From the NCBI GenBank assembly GCA_023261845.1, contig JALNJZ010000003.1, positions 79,383 through 143,382 on the forward strand: a stretch of 64,000 bases of DNA, read 5' to 3'. Below are positions 28,655 through 37,463 of the stretch, piece after piece. Origin of the DNA: Candidatus Terraquivivens tengchongensis. GTDB taxonomy: Archaea; Thermoproteota; Nitrososphaeria_A; Caldarchaeales; Wolframiiraptoraceae. The stretch's first letter is position 1, and each line of letters opens with the position of its first letter. The position numbers and the translations under genes were made by a program. The notes under the pieces were generated by a model. That model had not been told where the DNA came from, ran no database searches, and saw only the letters and a program-made list of their open reading frames with translations.

Positions 28655-29965
28655 TTAATCTGAAGATCTTAGCTCAAACTTTGCGCCTAGGCTGGCAAGG
28701 TCTTCAAGAAAATTCGGGTAAGATACGCTCGCGGATTCTGCTCCTATTACTGTGCACCCTTCCTCCAGAATAAGTCCTAAGAGACAATAGGCCATGAAGA
28801 GCCTATGGTCACCTCTTGGGTCGAGTACGGCATGTTTAACCAGTTTGCCCTGCGTTATGCTTAACCCATCCGTCGACTCTCTTACGTTCATTCCGATCTT
28901 AGAAAGAGTATGGGCAAGGGCGCTGACCCTATCGCTTTCCTTAACCCTTGCATGCTCTACGCCAGTTATCTCGAGCGTCCCTTCACACTTAGTAGCTAAG
29001 ACTGCTAGGACTGGCAAAAGATCTGGAGAATCGGATAGGTTAAAGCTACCACCTCTAAGCTTTCCACTTCCACTAACCATTACACGTCCAGAGCCGTAAT
29101 CCAATTTAACATTAGCCCCCATCTTGATAAGTATATCAACTATAGCAGCATCAGCTTGCGGTAAATCTTGACTAAGCCCCTCAACTGTAACTGAACCGTC
29201 TGTCATGAGCGCCGCGACCATCATGAAGGAGGCGAGTCCAAAATCCCCCGGCACTGTGAAACGTGCGGGCTTAAAATTCTGTTGTGAAGGAATGTGAAAG
29301 ACTTTATACCCTTCTCTTTTTATACGAATGCCGAACTGCTCCAGTACGTTTATGGTTGAGTCAACATAAGGCCTCGAGACAAGGTCTCCTTGTATTATGA
29401 GCGTCGTATCGTTTAGGGCCTTTGGTGATGAGAAGAGTATAGACGATACGAACTGGGATGATATGCTGCCAGTCATCCAAGCATTGCCGCCCTTTAACCC
29501 GCTACCTTTAACAATTATGGGTGCACAACCGTTGAGTCTCGTAGACCAGCACTCCCCTCCGAGCATGTTAAGGGCATCGAGTAGCGGTTGCATCGGTCTT
29601 CTCCTTATGCTCTCATCACCTGTGAGGACTACGTACCCATCTTTGACTAAGCAGCTCACACCAGTCATTATCCTTAACGTAGTTCCAGAATTCTGAACGT
29701 TCACAACATCATCCGGTACCTTAGGTGTTGAGAAACCACTGATGATGAGCCCGTCCCCCTCTTCAATTATGGATGCACCGAATTTCTTACACGCGTTAAT
29801 CGTAGCGATTACATCATTGGATTTTGAAACGTTTTTTACGACACACTCACCATCGGTCATAGAGGCTGCTATTATCGCCCTATGGCTGTAGCTTTTGCTG
29901 GGAGGTGCCCGTACTCTACCCGATATTACCGACGGTCTAATTAAGACCTGCAACGGAATCACCAA
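28655..29965 (-). CDS. aroA: 3-phosphoshikimate 1-carboxyvinyltransferase
   Basis: PPSKSYSHR, NSGTTLR, SSQFVS, KESDR, DHR. Confidence 0.96.
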   Translation of the reverse strand: MVIPLQVLIRPSVISGRVRAPPSKSYSHRAIIAASMTDGECVVKNVSKSNDVIATINACKKFGASIIEEGDGLIISGFSTPKVPDDVVNVQNSGTTLRIMTGVSCLVKDGYVVLTGDESIRRRPMQPLLDALNMLGGECWSTRLNGCAPIIVKGSGLKGGNAWMTGSISSQFVSSILFSSPKALNDTTLIIQGDLVSRPYVDSTINVLEQFGIRIKREGYKVFHIPSQQNFKPARFTVPGDFGLASFMMVAALMTDGSVTVEGLSQDLPQADAAIVDILIKMGANVKLDYGSGRVMVSGSGKLRGGSFNLSDSPDLLPVLAVLATKCEGTLEITGVEHARVKESDRVSALAHTLSKIGMNVRESTDGLSITQGKLVKHAVLDPRGDHRLFMAYCLLGLILEEGCTVIGAESASVSYPNFLEDLASLGAKFELRSSD

Positions 29966-30815
29966 CCCATGAATAGGCTTTCTTATTATTCGGTTTGGCT
30001 ATTATAAGTTCGCACCCTTTTTCACTTAACATATTAGCAACATCGCTTACCACATCTTTTTTACATACAGCGGCGATGGCAGGTCCAGTGCCGGATAGGC
30101 CGGCAGCTAAGGCTCCTGCTCTTATGGCATCCAAAGTCTTCTTCATGCTGTAGTTTAACGCTGCCGCATGAAGAATGCCGTTAAGTGTTAGGGCTCTCCA
30201 ATATTCCCCGTTCATGGACATCTTATACGCCTCCTCAACAAAGGATGCGATAGGCTTGAGTGCATTTTTATCGAAAAACTTAGTATAGCTTTTCAATTCT
30301 GGGACGAGCAAAACGACGACAAGGTCCTCTGGAGCTTCAACCCTCCTCATAAGCTGCCTCTTCAAGTTATCTGTGACGACTATACCGCCATAATAGCTAG
30401 CACATGCATCATCGTACGCGCCAGTTATAGTAACACCAGCTTCGATTGCGGCATCTACTGCTATGTTTAATATCTCAGCATCACTCAAGTTTAAGCCCGC
30501 AGCCCTTGCCGTAGCCAGAACTATGGCATTTGCGGCTGCGCTGGAACTCTTCAGTCCTCTACCGATAGGTATATTCGATCTTATTTCGACATAAGCCCCA
30601 CAATCCATCTGTGCTAGCTTCAAGATCTTTCTTACCGCCGCCTTTGCAAGTGTTGTATCCTCGTCTGGGTTTTCCTTTATCACCACGTCTATATCTCTGC
30701 CACCTATCTCCACCGTAGCCTCTGTGTAAAGGTCGATGCCCATTGCCGCTCCCTTACCGATTGATATAGCGTTAACGATCGTTATGGCACCGTGCGCCCT
30801 AGCAGTCGCCTTCAT
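29937..30815 (-). CDS. aroK: Archaeal (GHMP-type) shikimate kinase
   Basis: GAITIVNAI, IPIGRGLKSSSA, TGAYDDA, GLSGTGP; start ATG 30815 overlaps the aroE stop. Confidence 0.93.
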   Translation of the reverse strand: MKATARAHGAITIVNAISIGKGAAMGIDLYTEATVEIGGRDIDVVIKENPDEDTTLAKAAVRKILKLAQMDCGAYVEIRSNIPIGRGLKSSSAAANAIVLATARAAGLNLSDAEILNIAVDAAIEAGVTITGAYDDACASYYGGIVVTDNLKRQLMRRVEAPEDLVVVLLVPELKSYTKFFDKNALKPIASFVEEAYKMSMNGEYWRALTLNGILHAAALNYSMKKTLDAIRAGALAAGLSGTGPAIAAVCKKDVVSDVANMLSEKGCELIIAKPNNKKAYSWVGDSVAGLN

Positions 30816-31684
30816 ACAAAACGACCTATTGTCTTGATGGCAACACTCTTCATAACCTCTATCGGCGGCTCTAAAGACGTCCACAGCTTAAAGGACTCTG
30901 CAGCCTGAAAGACCAGCATGTCAAGCCCGGAGACACATGTAGCGCCCGCAAGCTTCGCCTCTTTCAGAAGCATAGTTTCGGGAGGATTGTATACCATATC
31001 CATCACGATAGAGCCGCTCGGTATCTGCTCCTTCCTAAGTAGCGAGTGCTCAATATTCGGCCACATGCCAACTGGTGTCGCGTTGATTATAACACTGCAA
31101 GCTTTAGCAATTGCGGGTAATTCGTTGATAGAAAGTCCCATACCTTTTGCAGAAATTTTAATTCTTCTTTTAAGGAAGTTCGCAAGTCTACGGGCCCTTG
31201 AAGGTGTACGACTAACAAATGTTATGCGATTACAACCAAGCCTGGCCAACGCTAGCGCAGCGGCAGAAGCGCCTCCGCCTGCACCAAGGATTAACGCTTC
31301 ATGACCGCTTATTGCATCTTTGTACGGCATGAGAGCATTCATTACGCCTGAAACGTCTGTGTTGTATCCAACCATTCTATCCTTCTCGATCACGACGGTA
31401 TTCACCGTCTTTATGATTTTAGCATCATCTGCAAGTTTATCCAAAAACCTCACGACCCTCTGTTTGTATGGTATCGTTACGTTAAAACCTGCCGCTCCTA
31501 GAGCCTTAAGGCCTCTGATCGCGTGTCCAAGTTCTTTTTCTTTTACATCAAATGCGATGTAGAAGTAATCAACGTTCATGTGATTAAAAGCAGCGTTGTG
31601 AATAGCTGGTGATATCGAATGCTTCACCGGTTGCCCGATGAGACCTACAAGTCTTTTGTTACCAGAGCGTGTTTGTGCTGACAT
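30812..31684 (-). CDS. aroE: Shikimate dehydrogenase
   Basis: HSISPAIHN, NVTIPYK, NTD, GAGG, NATPVGM, DMVYNP. Confidence 0.95.
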   Translation of the reverse strand: MSAQTRSGNKRLVGLIGQPVKHSISPAIHNAAFNHMNVDYFYIAFDVKEKELGHAIRGLKALGAAGFNVTIPYKQRVVRFLDKLADDAKIIKTVNTVVIEKDRMVGYNTDVSGVMNALMPYKDAISGHEALILGAGGGASAAALALARLGCNRITFVSRTPSRARRLANFLKRRIKISAKGMGLSINELPAIAKACSVIINATPVGMWPNIEHSLLRKEQIPSGSIVMDMVYNPPETMLLKEAKLAGATCVSGLDMLVFQAAESFKLWTSLEPPIEVMKSVAIKTIGRFV

Positions 31685-31690
31685 CTTAGA

Positions 31691-32392
31691 TCACTTTCCA
31701 CAGCAGCTCGATGAAAGCATACGGATTATTTCCTTCGCCTCAGTGATACTGAGTTGGCCGGGCGCCGTAGGTGCTCCGGGTAACGAGACGTACATGAAGG
31801 GCGCACCCAACATTACTGAGAGAAAACGCGACAAGATTCCTTCTACTCCCATGCAAAAGGCGATGAGCCTATGCTTATCATATGTATGATATAATGAGAG
31901 AATCCTGAGGTTATCGCTGAAGGACCTCGCCATGGTTACTACTTTTGTTATACTTCCAGATTTCATGGCTAAGTCGACTATCCTTCGTAGCTCATCGCTT
32001 TCCGGTGTCTTTTCAAAGTCGTGCCATGAAACTATCAAGGCCGTGCCCGTACCCATCAACTCTTTCGATAAATCTTGAAAAATGGGGGAACGAAGCTCTA
32101 TGTCAACGTACGCCGGACCTTCCCTACTCAGTCGCTTTAAAATCTTTACCCTTTCTTCTTCGTTACCCTCAAACAGTCCGTTCTCATAGCTCGGTCTGAG
32201 CGTCAACACCAATTTACCCATATAGGGTCTTAATGTCGAGCTTACAACGTTAACGTCCAACTCCTTCAAGTAATCAAGTCTAACCTCTACGATATCTGCA
32301 CCGCTGTTTATTGCTTTAACCACCGCATCTTTCAAGGATTGTATATCTCTCCCAAACGTCGATACGCATAGTTTGAACCGTTCCGTACTCAT
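31691..32392 (-). CDS. aroD: Type I 3-dehydroquinate dehydratase
   Basis: EVRLD, VSWHDFEKTP, FCMG…SR, APGQ. Confidence 0.93.
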   Translation of the reverse strand: MSTERFKLCVSTFGRDIQSLKDAVVKAINSGADIVEVRLDYLKELDVNVVSSTLRPYMGKLVLTLRPSYENGLFEGNEEERVKILKRLSREGPAYVDIELRSPIFQDLSKELMGTGTALIVSWHDFEKTPESDELRRIVDLAMKSGSITKVVTMARSFSDNLRILSLYHTYDKHRLIAFCMGVEGILSRFLSVMLGAPFMYVSLPGAPTAPGQLSITEAKEIIRMLSSSCCGK

Positions 32393-32430
32393 GAATATTA
32401 CTTCACCAGTTCTTATGGTTAATCGGCATT

Positions 32431-33489
32431 TTACCTCTCTACTATGAATTCGTCAACTGACACCCCAAAATGTCTGGCCTTCTCTTTACTTATGTGCGCC
32501 AATACTTTATCGCCCGGCTTAACCTCGGTTACCGAGATGGGCTTGCCATCTGGCCCTACGAGCCTTATGGTCTCAGCATTTTGCAAGATAACTGTCCCTT
32601 CTTCACCGTCAGCCTCTGCCTTGATGAGTCTCAGCGGCCTCCTTTCTATCTTCACCCTACCGACTGTTGTTGGTCTTGCTGAGCCTTGTGTATTAACCAC
32701 TAAAACTCTGTCACCTGCCCTTATCTCCGACAAATACTTAGTTCCACCAGTAGGGGTTAGAATGTAACTATGTATCGCACCCGCGTTTACTCTGAAGGGT
32801 CTTGGCTCCGTGAACGATGAACCTAAAGATTCGCTATGGATGAGAAACAGAAACCCTGCCTTACTTCCGACGAGCATCCCCTCCCCTATCGATAAAATAG
32901 AGACCGTATCAATACATGCCCTATCTCCTATCCCAACATCCTTAACATCCGTAATTTCGACTGGAGATAACTGAACCCTTGTGATGTAGCTGATCACTTC
33001 GAAGATTCTACCAACCTCCTCTTTGTTCCTTGGCTTGAATAAGACGGCGTCAACGCCCCTCTCTAGTATACCGTACATAATCTCAACCTCTTCTGGACTA
33101 CTAACCTTCGCAATGAGCTTCGTCGATGTTTTTTGCAGATACGCGATTATGTTCTCTAGTGGGATTATTTTCCAGTCCTTTGTGTCAACTATCAAGGCTT
33201 CAGCACCAAGCTTAGCCGCGGAGACTAACTTCTCTACGTCGCCATAGTTTAGCACGACGGCATGTACCGCAAACCTCTTCGCTTGCGGCACATCTTTACC
33301 AATAGGTACAACAAGAACGTCGCCGGCTGGCGAGTCTGAGTATATCGTAAGCCTTTGCCTAAACTCTAGTGGAACGTTAGCAGGGTCGCAGTAGTATGTG
33401 GTGATCCCTTTTGATAGGGCTTCCCTAAAGATTTCGTCGTTCCAGTCTCTTAAATCTATGCAGATCTCTTTTTTACTTAGCGGAAGCGT
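32431..33489 (-). CDS. aroB': 3-dehydroquinate synthase II (probable ACG start at 33489)
   Basis: DWKIIPLEN, GDRACID, RPFRVNAG, GRVKIERRP, ARHFG; frame stays open 66 codons upstream of the ORF-track GTG at 33291. Confidence 0.92.
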   Translation of the reverse strand, partial: TLPLSKKEICIDLRDWNDEIFREALSKGITTYYCDPANVPLEFRQRLTIYSDSPAGDVLVVPIGKDVPQAKRFAVHAVVLNYGDVEKLVSAAKLGAEALIVDTKDWKIIPLENIIAYLQKTSTKLIAKVSSPEEVEIMYGILERGVDAVLFKPRNKEEVGRIFEVISYITRVQLSPVEITDVKDVGIGDRACIDTVSILSIGEGMLVGSKAGFLFLIHSESLGSSFTEPRPFRVNAGAIHSYILTPTGGTKYLSEIRAGDRVLVVNTQGSARPTTVGRVKIERRPLRLIKAEADGEEGTVILQNAETIRLVGPDGKPISVTEVKPGDKVLAHISKEKARHFGVSVDEFIVER

Positions 33490-34270
33490 CTTTGAGCACC
33501 TCCAGAGCCTCTTTGACCGTGTAGTCTTCGATTATTATGGCCCTGAGCGCCCTAGTTATCGCGAATGGGTTATCGTGCTGGAACACGTTCCTGCCTATTG
33601 CCGCACCGATAGCTCCGGCATCCATCGCCTCCCTTACCATCTTCAAAACTTCTAAGTCGCTTTCCGCTTTCGGCCCACCGGCTATGACTATAGGGACGGG
33701 ACAACCATCCACGACCTTTCTAAATGTCTCTGGGCTGCCTATGTAGGGCGTCTTTACGATGTCTGCTCCAAGCTCAGCACCTATCCTCGCGACATGTGCG
33801 GCAACGTCGGGGTCGTTTGGATTCTTTATATTCTCACCCCTCGGATACATCATTGCTATGAACGGTACCTGCCATTCATCACACTCGTCAGCAAGCATTC
33901 CAAGCTTTCTCAACATCTTCGGCTCATCGCTGCATCCTATGTTGACATGAACGGAAACTGCGTCCGCCCCAAGCCTTAAAGCCTCTTCAACGCCCGAAAC
34001 TCTCACTTTGAGGTTAGGCGATGGTCCTAAAGATGTGCTCGCAGAAACGTGCATTATGGTACCAACGTTCAAAGGTTTGGGCATAACCCTCAGTATGCCT
34101 TTGTGTGTCAAAACGGCCGTGGCTCCTCCGAGGCTAACCTTTTCTATCGTATCAAATATCTTGTCCAAGCCTTTAACCGGACCTATAGTAACTCCGTGGT
34201 CCATCGGTATGCATAACATCCTTCCTTTTTCCGTTATCCTATTCAACCTGACCTGCTTTCCGAACACCAT
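33473..34270 (-). CDS. aroA': 2-amino-3,7-dideoxy-D-threo-hept-6-ulosonate synthase (DhnA-type aldolase)
   Basis: PMDHG, MMYPRG, GAELGADIVKT, AGGP, GRNVFQH; adjacent to aroB'. Confidence 0.92.
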   Translation of the reverse strand: MVFGKQVRLNRITEKGRMLCIPMDHGVTIGPVKGLDKIFDTIEKVSLGGATAVLTHKGILRVMPKPLNVGTIMHVSASTSLGPSPNLKVRVSGVEEALRLGADAVSVHVNIGCSDEPKMLRKLGMLADECDEWQVPFIAMMYPRGENIKNPNDPDVAAHVARIGAELGADIVKTPYIGSPETFRKVVDGCPVPIVIAGGPKAESDLEVLKMVREAMDAGAIGAAIGRNVFQHDNPFAITRALRAIIIEDYTVKEALEVLKDASAK

Positions 34271-34272
34271 GT

Positions 34273-35328
34273 CTACTCTATCCTCCCAGATGCATGTAGC
34301 AGCTCAGCCGTCAGTATCGCTATGCCGGCAGCACCCCTTATCGTGTTATGGCTAAGAACAAAGAACTTTAGAGCCCTCTCATCTTTTGCAGACCTTACCC
34401 TTCCAACGACCGCACTCATGCCTGGAACGCTTCCAGCATATATGTCGAGCCTTGGTTGTGGTCTATCTTCCTCCTCCATCACGATTATCGGTCTCTCAGG
34501 AGCTGTAGGTAGCGCCAGCCTCTGTGGAAGGCCTTTGAATTCCGCTAGCACCCTTTTCGCATCTTCTACGCTCACAACTTTCTCTGTCTCGATGTAGACG
34601 GATTCTAAGTGTCCATCTATCGTGGGAACTCTGGTACAACTAGCCTCGATGGCTATACGGGCTGACTCAATGGACCCGTCCTTAAACCTTCCCAGTATCT
34701 TCTGTGTTTCTTTTTCTACCTTTCCCTCCTCGCCTGATATGTACGGTATAACGTTCCCGAGTATAGAAAGCGAAGGTACGCCTGGGAAGCCCGCACCCGA
34801 GACTGCCTGCATCGTAGTTACCACGACCTTCTTGAGACAATAAGCATCGTGCAATGGTTTAAGGGGCATGACTAGACCTACGGTTGTGCAGTTGGGCGTG
34901 GTTACTATGTACCCATCCCACTTCCTATTCTTTTTCTGAACATCTATTAACTCGATGTGCTCCGGGTTTATCTCCGGCACGATGAGCGGTACGTCTTTCT
35001 CCATCCTATGAGCAGAAGCATCGCTTACAACTGGGAAGCCTTCTTGCGCAAAAAGTGGTTCTGACTCATGAGCAGCTTCAGTAGGTAGCGGGGAGAACGC
35101 CAAGTCTGCATCAACATATTTTGGCTCGTTCGGTACGACCTCCATATCCGCTACACTGGATGGAATATCGATCGGGTTCCCCCTCACTGCTTCTCCATAC
35201 TTCTTACCGACAGATTCCTTCCCCGTTAGGCATGAGAGTTTGAACCATGGATGTCTCGAGAGTATGCTTACGTATCGTTGGCCGACCATTCCAGTGGCTC
35301 CTAACACGGCAACTTTAATTTGTTTCAT
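34273..35328 (-). CDS. asd: Aspartate-semialdehyde dehydrogenase
   Basis: GATGMVGQ, PNCTT, QAVSGAG, HNTIRGAAG. Confidence 0.96.
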   Translation of the reverse strand: MKQIKVAVLGATGMVGQRYVSILSRHPWFKLSCLTGKESVGKKYGEAVRGNPIDIPSSVADMEVVPNEPKYVDADLAFSPLPTEAAHESEPLFAQEGFPVVSDASAHRMEKDVPLIVPEINPEHIELIDVQKKNRKWDGYIVTTPNCTTVGLVMPLKPLHDAYCLKKVVVTTMQAVSGAGFPGVPSLSILGNVIPYISGEEGKVEKETQKILGRFKDGSIESARIAIEASCTRVPTIDGHLESVYIETEKVVSVEDAKRVLAEFKGLPQRLALPTAPERPIIVMEEEDRPQPRLDIYAGSVPGMSAVVGRVRSAKDERALKFFVLSHNTIRGAAGIAILTAELLHASGRIE

Positions 35329-36538
35329 TCAATTCCACCTCCAGATTTGCTTTTACAAGAGAGGCAGCTTTCTCCGCGTCTTTTGCGGACACGAATATCC
35401 TGATTGACGAACTTATAGTTACCAAACCGTAGATATTTATGCCACGCTGTGCGAGCGGTGCTACGACTTTATATATCAAGCCCGGACTCGTTTCGAGCAT
35501 TCTACCGCTTACGCTTATAGCAGACAGCCCCTCGAAAAAGCTTATGGCCTTACCCATGCCCGATTCCACAACCTCCTTATGCAGCTCATCTATTAGCTTG
35601 GTGTCCAAGTCCGTGTAAATTATGATGGATTTTTCGCCGGTCGTTATATTGAGGATTTCACCGTTGTGCTTTTGAACAAACTCTACGACAGGTTTAACCA
35701 TGGACGCACCGTCCGAGTTTCTTGAGAGTATCGTTATCATGGTTACTTTAGCCGGGTGTCTGCTGACTTCGAGCTTTGGAAGTGTGCCAATTATGACTGT
35801 TCCCGACTTCCCTAGACCTTCCATGCTAGATATTCTTAACTTGAGGTCCCCTGACAGATACCTCAACGCTTTCGAGTGAATGATCTTTGCACCACCTTCT
35901 GTTAAAAGTTTGGCCTCATCTACGTCAAGCGTCTCTAGTATCTCGGCTTTGCTGACCTTATCCGGATCTCCCGAATATATGCCCTCAACATCTTTAATTA
36001 AGACAACTTCTGCAGCATTTAGACAGCTGCCGAGCAATATGGCGGTCGTGTCACTGCCACCCCTGCCCAGCGTAGTTATCTTACCCGAAGTACTAACACC
36101 AATATATCCGCATACAACAGGAACTTTGCCGGCCTCAATCAGTGGCAATAGTTTCTCTTTACATCTTTTCTCCGTCTCGTGATAGATGGGGTTTGCATCA
36201 AGATGTACATCGTCCGTTATTATAGGCCAGTACTCGTTAGATGGGTCCACCAAGACAGCGTCGACACCAAACCTATTCAACGCAGCCGTGAAAAGTCTCG
36301 CGCTTGTCCTTTCACCCATCGCCAAAATTTCGTCGAGCATGTCGGGTCGAATGTCCGGGTTAACATCTTTAGCTGTCTTCAACAGCTCATCAGTCATTCC
36401 CTTTAGCGCCGAGACCACTACTACCAGTCCGTATTCCTTCAGCAGGTCCTTCACCCAGGACGCTGCCCTTTCAAGGGCTCTAGAGTCTTGGAGGACAGAG
36501 CCACCAAGCTTTACGACCATTATATTTTTCATAGGCAC
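35315..36538 (-). CDS. lysC: Aspartate kinase (start 36538 GTG or 36532 ATG)
   Basis: VVKLGGS, TLGRGGSDTTA, KDVEGIYSGDP, C-terminal ACT-like domains; SD GGAGGGAGG at 36549-36541. Confidence 0.94.
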   Translation of the reverse strand: MPMKNIMVVKLGGSVLQDSRALERAASWVKDLLKEYGLVVVVSALKGMTDELLKTAKDVNPDIRPDMLDEILAMGERTSARLFTAALNRFGVDAVLVDPSNEYWPIITDDVHLDANPIYHETEKRCKEKLLPLIEAGKVPVVCGYIGVSTSGKITTLGRGGSDTTAILLGSCLNAAEVVLIKDVEGIYSGDPDKVSKAEILETLDVDEAKLLTEGGAKIIHSKALRYLSGDLKLRISSMEGLGKSGTVIIGTLPKLEVSRHPAKVTMITILSRNSDGASMVKPVVEFVQKHNGEILNITTGEKSIIIYTDLDTKLIDELHKEVVESGMGKAISFFEGLSAISVSGRMLETSPGLIYKVVAPLAQRGINIYGLVTISSSIRIFVSAKDAEKAASLVKANLEVELNETN

Positions 36539-36540
36539 GA

Positions 36541-36702
36541 CCTCCCTCCAAAGCTGTTAAAACACAGAAAGGAGAAGATGGCTTCAGAGAGAGGCGTCCG
36601 GCTCGCTATAGCGATAATAGCGGTAGCCGGTCGTGAGGAAAAGGCGATCCCTCACGTTCGCCGCCTCTCTTTAGTAATTTGCATTCACGTTGGTTATTTA
36701 AA
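36541..36702 (-). promoter_or_regulatory. Promoter and structured 5' leader of the lysC-asd-aro operon
   Basis: TTTAAATA at 36702-36695; three-way junction 36670-36588; pyrimidine-rich anti-SD segments. Confidence 0.65.
36584..36655 (-). CDS. Putative Tyr-rich leader peptide MRDRLFLTTGYRYYRYSEPDASL
   Basis: GTG start 5 nt after SD-like GAGGCGG; TAC CGC TAT TAT CGC TAT at 36625-36608; TGA at 36586-36584; lies between the TATA box and lysC. Confidence 0.65.
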   Translation of the reverse strand: MRDRLFLTTGYRYYRYSEPDASL

Positions 36703-36797: not shown

Positions 36798-37463
36798 TTG
36801 GTTTTAGAAAAGGAGGATCAGCTAGCGTCCATGTCTAAAGGTAAGACGGGAAATTATGCTTGTGTCGTCCTTGTAAACGGAAGGGGTTACATGGGCGACA
36901 AGAAAGGTTTGGTGAAGATAGCCGGGAGGCCCATGATCGAGTACGTCCTCGATAGCGTACCAGACGAGGTTACGGAATTGTTCGTATCGGTTGAGAACGA
37001 AATGCAGGCCGCAGCCTACGGGCCTATATGCGAGAAGTACTTTGCTTCACTCATGAGACTGGAGAAAACTCAGTACCTGAACGAACATGAAAAGATAAAA
37101 GAGGTTCTGGAGAACGTTCCGGGTTCTAATATACTCGTCCTTCCTTGCGATATGCCGTGTATCACGTTAGAATTTACTTACTTCTTATTAGAGGCCTCTA
37201 AGAAATTCACAGCAGTATTGCCTAGGATGCTGGATAATAACGTTGACTTCAGCTTAGCGTCCTATCAAGCCGAACCTTTTCTTGAGGCATTTAAAAAGTA
37301 TCCTGAAATGCGCCTACCTGAGCTCATTAAGAAACTTAGGAATGTGCTTTATGTATCAACTAATGCCCTAAGGATGTTTGACAGCAAGCTTAGTATTCTA
37401 TACAGGGTATCTTCTGCGGCGGACGTACCAAAAGTGGAGAACATACTCCGCAACAGGTTATAA
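36798..37463 (+). CDS. MobA-like NTP-transferase family protein (degenerate)
   Basis: MGDKKGLVKIAGRPMIEYV and VLPCDMP. Confidence 0.7.
   Translation: MVLEKEDQLASMSKGKTGNYACVVLVNGRGYMGDKKGLVKIAGRPMIEYVLDSVPDEVTELFVSVENEMQAAAYGPICEKYFASLMRLEKTQYLNEHEKIKEVLENVPGSNILVLPCDMPCITLEFTYFLLEASKKFTAVLPRMLDNNVDFSLASYQAEPFLEAFKKYPEMRLPELIKKLRNVLYVSTNALRMFDSKLSILYRVSSAADVPKVENILRNRL

Follow-up and report, generated by a model that had tools for sequence, protein, structure and literature searches.

In bacteria, leader-peptide attenuation is a textbook example of transcription coupled to translation, and archaea couple the two processes as well. Other upstream peptides arrest the ribosome in response to free metabolites, as is the case for TnaC, the fungal arginine attenuator peptide and plant CGS1, and in the Thermococcales the promoters of aromatic genes are bound by a DNA-binding regulator, Tar. 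In the open full texts found, leader-peptide attenuation was described only for bacteria (PMC1262725, PMC2965389, PMC4983044, PMC9413887, PMC11456600), and for archaea there were only general notes on upstream open reading frames (ORFs) in Haloferax and Methanosarcina. No archaeal leader peptide rich in the codons of an amino acid was described in the open full-text literature searched, those five articles included. Here we describe a 23-codon ORF on the minus strand of a 64,000-nucleotide stretch of the Candidatus Terraquivivens tengchongensis genome (contig JALNJZ010000003.1; hereafter the window, to which coordinates without a contig label refer), which lies directly before an eight-gene aromatic operon. 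We consider it likely that this ORF belongs, in diverged form, to a family of leaders, rich in aromatic codons, that precede the kinase-led 6-deoxy-5-ketofructose 1-phosphate (DKFP)/shikimate operon in the Nitrososphaeria. That such a leader serves as a peptide sensor of the supply of aromatic aminoacyl-tRNAs is, in our judgment, equally probable.

The source assembly (G000) has 14 contigs and a total length of 1.22 Mb. The predicted promoter of the operon contains a TATA box, TTTAAATA, at 36695–36702 on the minus strand, with the sequence CGAAACG, which resembles a transcription factor B recognition element (BRE), upstream of it; TCGAAAYGYTTAAATAA at this promoter is kept in all seven members of the genus. 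Archaeal promoter geometry would place the transcription start at 36671–36672, about 26 nt from the TATA centre. A Shine-Dalgarno region, AGAGAGGCGG, follows at 36670–36661, with its GAGG (36664–36667) 8 nt before the start codon (the 16S rRNA of this genome ends in ...GGATCACCTCCT). The leader ORF itself occupies 36584–36655 on the minus strand, with a GTG start at 36655, 23 codons and a TGA stop, and its translation is MRDRLFLTTGYRYYRYSEPDASL. The distance from its stop to the first gene of the operon, an aspartate kinase linked to the aro genes, is 45 nt if the kinase starts at GTG 36538 and 51 nt if it starts at ATG 36532. The ATG (36532–36530) is better spaced from the kinase Shine-Dalgarno sequence, GGAGGGAGGT (36549–36540), and is the probable start. 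The biosynthetic operon has, then, a short ORF with its own start codon and Shine-Dalgarno site in its 5′ leader. An earlier note on this DNA had listed the TATA box, the Shine-Dalgarno-like box, the GTG start, the 23-residue frame and the 45-nt gap before the kinase, and each of these was seen in the sequence.

The translation also agreed with that note in having four Tyr in six consecutive codons, one Phe and two Thr. The Tyr codons are numbers 11, 13, 14 and 16 (36625–36623, 36619–36614 and 36610–36608), and codons 4, 12 and 15 are CGC. The rarity that the note had ascribed to the interleaved CGC codons was borne out, as in G000 ORFs of 250 amino acids or more CGC accounts for 5% of Arg codons; these codons are not kept as Arg within the genus, where TGC or AGC takes their place. 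Across the whole genome, Phe, Trp and Tyr together account for 8.5% of codons, and nine of 13,936 ORFs of 15–40 amino acids have at least four Tyr within six codons. Because so few ORFs are that rich in Tyr, and because this one lies directly before an aromatic operon, its origin by chance is unlikely.

The relatives of this locus are other Ca. Terraquivivens metagenome-assembled genomes (MAGs; genus g1), and its two sister genera (g5 and g3) are Ca. Geocrenenecus and Ca. Benthortus, all of them Caldarchaeales (‘Aigarchaeota’) within the Nitrososphaeria. The leader is 84–89% identical in all six other genomes of the genus, with a mean column identity of 94% over a 95-nt core versus 85% over the wider region. 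The start codon and frame are kept in 7/7 genomes, the stop codon is TGA or TAA, and Tyr13 is replaced by Trp in two of the seven sequences, which requires a two-base change. A pattern scan of metagenomes returned six matches, five of which were the same genus-type leader and brought no new variation; the sixth was rejected as a chance match. In the sister genera, orthologues of the aro-linked kinase (51–55% identity) were identified in all eight g5 and all three g3 genomes. An aromatic-rich short ORF lies upstream of the orthologous kinase in 18 of 18 loci across the three genera, and in g5 and g3 it ends in ...FF[FY]xFWSYxYF[AT]LA and a stop codon (e.g., MELTKNACIVFFFSFWSYYYFALA).

To this we added a wider set of 84 loci, composed of the best 80 of 431 kinase relatives by kinase alignment and four loci fetched earlier. 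A leader was defined as an ORF of 12–45 codons that ended 20–120 nt before the kinase match and had at least four, five or six Phe, Trp or Tyr residues in ten. At the lowest threshold 53 of the 84 loci had a leader on the forward strand, as against nine on the reverse complement and a mean of 6.2 in 20 shuffles; the corresponding values were 29, 2 and 1.2 at the threshold of five and 21, 0 and 0.0 at six, counts that overstate independence in that the 84 loci are related and a few genomes are present twice. End-product codons were enriched beyond chance both by the genome-wide ORF count and by the controls on these 84 loci.

At least eight types of peptide occur among the leaders. Seven of them end in ...RGGSVYRRSLFGFSF, ...FGFYYF, ...IFGFRY, ...FGFFGYSW, ...GFFAYFWN, ...FYRYY (one Caldarchaeum MAG) and ...SYSYWVSYYY, each followed by the stop codon, and the eighth, VPFWRYYTSYSFYCYFSFYFRF, is from a Borrarchaeota MAG. 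The leaders are 16–26 residues long with variable N-termini, and most groups have their aromatic codons at the 3′ end of the ORF. Codon tables showed that the aromatic columns mix TAT, TAC, TTT, TTC and TGG, and that stop codons interchange; codons are conserved by class, with synonymous variation, and the rest of the peptide drifts. The distance from leader stop to kinase start is 36–54 nt in 41 of the 47 leaders measured, a range that includes the L096 group (41–47 nt with the corrected leader frame); exceptions are L082, at 72 nt, whose start call is doubtful, and L072, L115 and L123, at 28–31 nt. Downstream, the aspartate-semialdehyde dehydrogenase gene (asd) and/or the gene for 2-amino-3,7-dideoxy-D-threo-hept-6-ulosonate (ADH) synthase is present in 44 of 45 leader-positive loci. 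As read from the alignments, this pattern is the one expected from selection on the class of encoded amino acid at a fixed place in the leader. The earlier note had proposed that orthologous operons be searched for upstream short ORFs rich in Tyr, Phe or Trp, and these are indeed kept, with synonymous and aromatic-to-aromatic variation; the opposite outcome that it had named, in which stems are kept and the frame or the aromatic codons are lost, was not seen in the relatives. Its proposal that stalling on Tyr codons senses charged tRNA-Tyr was supported to the extent that an aromatic leader is kept, and not in its restriction to Tyr: because the leaders of the relatives carry all three aromatic residues, the leader suits the common pathway rather than Tyr alone.

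The Borrarchaeota leader (L123, in an Asgard MAG) is a 22-codon ORF with 13 aromatic residues, located about 49–118 nt before the kinase match, and the cluster behind it has the order kinase, ADH synthase, 3-dehydroquinate (DHQ) synthase II. Common descent, transfer or, in an AT-rich genome, convergence could each account for this leader. In four Ca. Caldarchaeum MAGs (L061, L062, L070 and L092), the orthologous kinase is close behind another gene and the leader is absent; neither asd nor ADH synthase was found within 1.5 kb downstream of the kinase in these loci. Judged from gene order, operon and leader occur together.

The leader RNA is predicted to fold as a three-way junction (z = −4.44; 0 of 200 shuffles were as stable). 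The first helix, P1, is a 9-nt inverted repeat with 100% complementarity between a 5′ strand, AGAGAGGCG (36662–36670, minus strand), that holds the leader GAGG and is invariant in 7/7 sequences, and a 3′ strand, CGCCUCUCU (36588–36596), that comprises leader codons 20–23. The same 3′ strand is the strongest complement of the kinase Shine-Dalgarno sequence, and its best partner in 6/6 genus sequences (−16.7 to −20.6 kcal/mol). P2 (36632–36656) is a hairpin of CGUGAGGGA and UUCCUCACG with a 7-nt loop, formed by the start codon and codons 1–8; its nine pairs are all kept, three of them varying on one side. The arms and loop of the P3 hairpin (36598–36630) hold all four Tyr codons; this hairpin is built on the palindrome GCTATAGC, repeated in most genus members, and can adopt two registers. 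By eye, its stem reads CCAGCU/AGCUGG in G004 versus CCGGCU/AGCCGG in G000, and G001 has a perfect 13-bp stem.

Different helices are predicted in the other groups of leaders. In g5 and g3, a 12-bp helix pairs AGCUCCAGAGGC, which includes the leader Shine-Dalgarno site, with the S-F-W-S codons, and an 8-bp GNRA-type hairpin has the stop codon in its loop; sliding the 3′ partners brings the share of paired cells in these helices down from 93.5% to 33–58%. Group D leaders pair the K-P-I-F-G-F-R codons with a 5′ end that includes the AUG. For group E the predicted helix is between the last codons (AGCUGG) and a CCAGCU downstream of the stop, and this CCAGCU strand has an alternative partner in the flank of the kinase Shine-Dalgarno sequence, CUGGAGG. 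In L098 and L108 of that group the three elements change together (to GUUGG, CCAAC and UUGGAGG), which represents one evolutionary event.

A pyrimidine tract, CCATCTTCTCCTTTCT (36566–36581, minus strand), is located directly after the leader stop and pairs with the kinase Shine-Dalgarno sequence in the minimum-energy fold. The first 20 nt after the stop are 65–80% pyrimidine in 6/6 genus sequences and at least 60% pyrimidine in all 31 sequences of g1 and groups C, D and E, compared with 30–55% in g5 and g3. For 21 of these 31 sequences (6/6 in g1, 5/9 in C, 2/6 in D, where it is within the top two in 6/6, and 8/10 in E), the best complement of the kinase Shine-Dalgarno sequence is located between −16 and +8 nt relative to the leader stop. 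Aromatic codons at the end of the leader together with a pyrimidine segment at its stop resemble the arrangement of translational attenuation. A T4 run at 36559–36562 (minus strand; T3–T5 in relatives) keeps its position within the genus; runs of at least five T occur in four of six genus sequences and in few others, and are not conserved across groups.

The effect of a ribosome on this RNA was modelled in silico by masking a 30-nt footprint at each codon and recording the accessibility of the kinase Shine-Dalgarno sequence. In g1, accessibility was 0.26 unmasked, 0.12 with Tyr16 in the A site and 0.52 at the stop. The g5 and g3 leaders had 0.48 unmasked and about 0.3 at the aromatic codons. 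In group D (0.13 unmasked) there was no rise at the aromatic codons and 0.22 at the last two codons or the stop, in group E (0.18 unmasked) there was no rise at the aromatic codons and 0.34 at the final Trp codon, and in group C masking had no effect at any position.

Several results weigh against reading these leaders as sensors of aromatic tRNA charging, in addition to the overstated independence of the locus counts. Most substitutions in the ORF within the genus alter the residue (R4C, T9N/A/S, R12S, P19T/L and D20G). Because the kept Tyr codons coincide with the repeated palindrome GCTATAGC, a constraint on RNA or DNA alone could hold the genus Tyr codons in place. The motif AGAGGCGGTTCAGTTTATC is kept in L096, L100 and L101 despite an in-frame TGA. 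It is conserved in the leaders of Nitrososphaerales MAGs (L076–L095, L104, L107 and L121) and encodes R-G-G-S-V-Y in most of them; in L096, L100 and L101 the leader ORF begins downstream of it. Because the motif is kept out of frame there, RNA- or DNA-level constraints also act. A universal helix between the 5′ and 3′ ends of the leaders was no better than in shuffles (median z −0.67; 6 of 47 below −2), for which reason P1, as a predicted helix, is claimed only for g1, g5/g3 and D. Footprint masking, including a run with a wider window, gave no consistent opening of the kinase Shine-Dalgarno sequence at the aromatic codons, and taken literally the model predicts the wrong sign. A scan for bacterial-type promoters and terminators found 0 sites, although archaeal termination signals are poorly defined and control could still be transcriptional. 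The T4 run was rejected as a T-tract terminator because it is not distinctive (in this genome such runs occur in 45% of upstream non-coding 60-mers vs 47% after stops), and no terminator was identified between the leader and the first structural gene. Finally, no comparable leader was found in the upstream regions of trpE, tyrA, aroC and pheA of the same genome.

Our favoured reading remains that of a leader-peptide sensor of aromatic aminoacyl-tRNA supply. Its sensor half, which works like that of a leader-peptide attenuator, is well supported. The claim of the earlier note that stalling controls the operon is retained here in conditional form, given that masking produced no stall-dependent opening of the kinase ribosome-binding site (RBS) and that the scan found no terminator. 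The sequence comparisons establish the ORF and its conservation, the selection for aromatic residues as a class, the fixed spacing and the helices; that the ORF is translated, that ribosomes stall in it, and in which direction and at which level the operon is controlled are inferences. Transcription would begin about 2 nt before P1, and a ribosome would bind the GAGG in the P1 5′ strand and translate the leader. If Tyr, Phe or Trp tRNAs were poorly charged, the ribosome would stall at aromatic codons within the conserved helices and melt them; the element concerned would be P3 in this genus and the stop-codon hairpin in group E, and in the sister genera and group D it would be the P1 3′ strand. 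The pyrimidine-rich segment at the leader stop, the best complement of the kinase Shine-Dalgarno sequence, would then pair differently, and the expression of the operon would change with it. We speculate that the output is translational, through unmasking of the Shine-Dalgarno sequence as in the ermC and cat leaders; this would be clearest where the aromatic codons end the leader.

The leaders share with the bacterial trp, phe, his, thr, ilv and leu attenuators a short ORF with its own RBS in the 5′ leader of a biosynthetic operon, a strong enrichment of end-product codons embedded in RNA helices, a helix that hides the RBS of the leader itself, and a first aromatic codon at about codon 9–13. 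They differ in having an archaeal host with a TATA/BRE promoter and no hairpin-plus-U terminator, the T runs being neither conserved nor distinctive. They also differ in that a single leader mixes Phe, Trp and Tyr codons for a common pathway, in that the first gene is the dedicated aspartate kinase of the archaeal DKFP route, and in that equilibrium masking does not reproduce the classic logic. The likeness to the ermC and cat leaders lies in the pyrimidine-rich complement of the downstream Shine-Dalgarno sequence at or just after the leader stop (the 21/31 and 31/31 sequences noted above), in the aromatic codons being last in most groups, in the spacer of fixed length, and in the rise in Shine-Dalgarno accessibility when a ribosome occupies the last codon in groups D and E. 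Unlike in those systems, the inducer here would be an uncharged tRNA rather than an antibiotic, the site opens equally for a ribosome that terminates and for one that stalls, and in the source genus accessibility falls when the Tyr codons, 8–13 codons short of the stop, are masked. Tar also regulates this pathway in archaea, as a DNA-binding protein at promoters; what is conserved here, in contrast, belongs to the transcript, a leader that looks translated.

For a sensor of product excess, the sign of the masking results would be correct. In such a system the aromatic C-terminus of the nascent peptide would arrest the ribosome when free aromatic amino acids are abundant, and the strands freed by the arrest would close the kinase RBS; a modelled ribosome on the aromatic codons does lower Shine-Dalgarno accessibility in g1 and g5/g3. 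The ends of the g5 and g3 leaders would suit this as well, the last 14 codons being free of insertions and deletions with invariant W, S, Y, F and L-A positions, and the N-termini varying. TnaC, the arginine attenuator peptide and CGS1 likewise have a short upstream ORF, a conserved C-terminal part fixed to the stop, and a gene of the matching pathway behind it. Unlike those peptides, the leaders described here have many codons of the sensed class, and their sequence is not conserved between groups, between which the peptides differ strongly. Known arrest sensors carry few codons of the amino acid that they sense; the 4–13 aromatic codons of these leaders must also stall ribosomes in starvation, which would shut the pathway off when it is needed. 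In addition, the invariant codons also sit in helices. On balance we consider an arrest sensor unlikely.

The conservation of RNA features raises a different alternative, of about the same low probability, in which the leader is a structured cis-regulatory RNA, such as a riboswitch or a protein-binding site, and the ORF is incidental. The stable three-way junction, the 95-nt core that is more conserved than its flanks, the nucleotide motif kept out of frame in L096, L100 and L101, and the predominance of non-synonymous changes in the ORF within the genus are all consistent with this. Covariation is sparse, however: RNAalifold keeps P1, P2 and an 8-bp P3 with two-sided changes in 1 of 28 pairs, and the g5/g3 helices have such changes in 2 of 20. 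With the covariance model, 7 of 35 family genomes had a match, all of them in this genus and each with a single copy. Searches against Rfam gave no match in the window region (best E-value 1.1, below the gathering score) and nothing at the leaders of seven further loci. Aromatic-class conservation, moreover, extends over leaders with widely differing nucleotide sequences and folds, the start codon is conserved and so is the stop, with interchange among the stop codons, and the forward strand is clearly above its controls.

That the ORF encodes a small aromatic protein with a function in trans, for instance at the membrane or on a pathway enzyme, seems to us very improbable. An ORF conserved with its own Shine-Dalgarno site and a hydrophobic, aromatic C-terminus would fit this, but it is the aromatic class alone that is conserved and no sequence, the 16–26 residues include variable N-termini, and the position is fixed at 36–54 nt before the same operon. 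Least probable of all is a DNA operator in which the 8-bp palindrome GCTATAGC (present twice in the genus, as a direct repeat 7 bp apart, and once in group E, where GGCTATAGC recurs) binds a factor that blocks elongation, since the site is about 45–70 bp downstream of the predicted start and far from the BRE/TATA region where archaeal operators usually sit, the first copy is imperfect in G000 itself, and g5/g3, C and D have aromatic leaders without the palindrome.

The operon behind the leader (28655–36538, minus strand) consists of eight genes, as the earlier note had it, and Pfam assignments agree, with E-values of 1e-18 to 1e-108. In order, these encode an aspartate kinase with an ACT domain, Asd, a DeoC-type aldolase similar to ADH synthase, DHQ synthase II, AroD, AroE, a GHMP-type shikimate kinase and 5-enolpyruvylshikimate 3-phosphate (EPSP) synthase. 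The archaeal aromatic route of this operon (DKFP/shikimate) begins at aspartate semialdehyde. Because the genome holds a second kinase match of about 30–39% identity, the operon kinase looks, from sequence comparison, like a paralogue dedicated to the aromatic pathway. The DHQ synthase II frame is open to 33531, and none of the codons ATG, GTG and TTG occurs in it from the ADH synthase stop (33473) to 33291; the ORF that starts with GTG lacks the first 65 positions of the Pfam profile (region 33292–33472, minus strand). A non-canonical start codon (ATC or ATA near 33460–33450) or initiation by coupling is the probable explanation. Upstream of the operon, a 16-nt inverted repeat with 81% complementarity (36696–36711/36760–36775) holds the TATA regions of two divergent promoters, that of the aro operon and that of a MobA-like nucleotidyltransferase gene starting near 36831.

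Transcripts from the locus were identified in one hot-spring metatranscriptome, in which ten reads with at least 99% identity covered parts of the kinase gene and the leader. All ten had their first mate on the plus strand, which is what a minus-strand RNA would give if this is a stranded library of the usual type. Over the leader the reads reach a depth of 2 from about 36611 to 36671 with none upstream, and are too sparse to map a start; their edge near 36671 fits the predicted start, although two reads prove nothing. Of three other RNA runs, one gave a contig inside the kinase gene only and two gave 0 reads.

A genome-wide scan for other leaders rich in a single residue gave nothing convincing. 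A Tyr-rich ORF at C2:15148–15225 was rejected as a leader, as it overlaps another ORF and has no Shine-Dalgarno site. Outside the window, between a conserved TATA box and trpE (G000 contig C2:196316–196333, minus strand; locus L134), there is a mini-ORF, ATG TGC CTT TGG CAK TRA, which encodes MCLW[QH] with one Trp codon, is present in 7/7 genomes of the genus and has nine codons in G001. A minimal Trp leader is one possible reading of it, just a small hairpin (UGCC-UUU-GGCA) the other.

Whether the Nitrososphaeria and at least one Asgard MAG have an old and widespread attenuator, in which an aromatic leader peptide reads the charging of Phe, Tyr and Trp tRNAs and the output is RBS masking or an archaeal coupling of ribosome to polymerase or termination factor rather than a hairpin terminator, is in our view an evenly balanced question. 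This conserved family is a concrete, testable case of possible leader-peptide attenuation in archaea and comes with dozens of natural variants. As the family occurs in lineages without hairpin terminators, it could show how archaea read out the position of a ribosome. The leader also singles out the kinase that heads the operon as a candidate paralogue dedicated to aromatic synthesis via the DKFP route. If our reading is correct, the archaeal domain would thereby gain its first leader peptide system for sensing amino acids.

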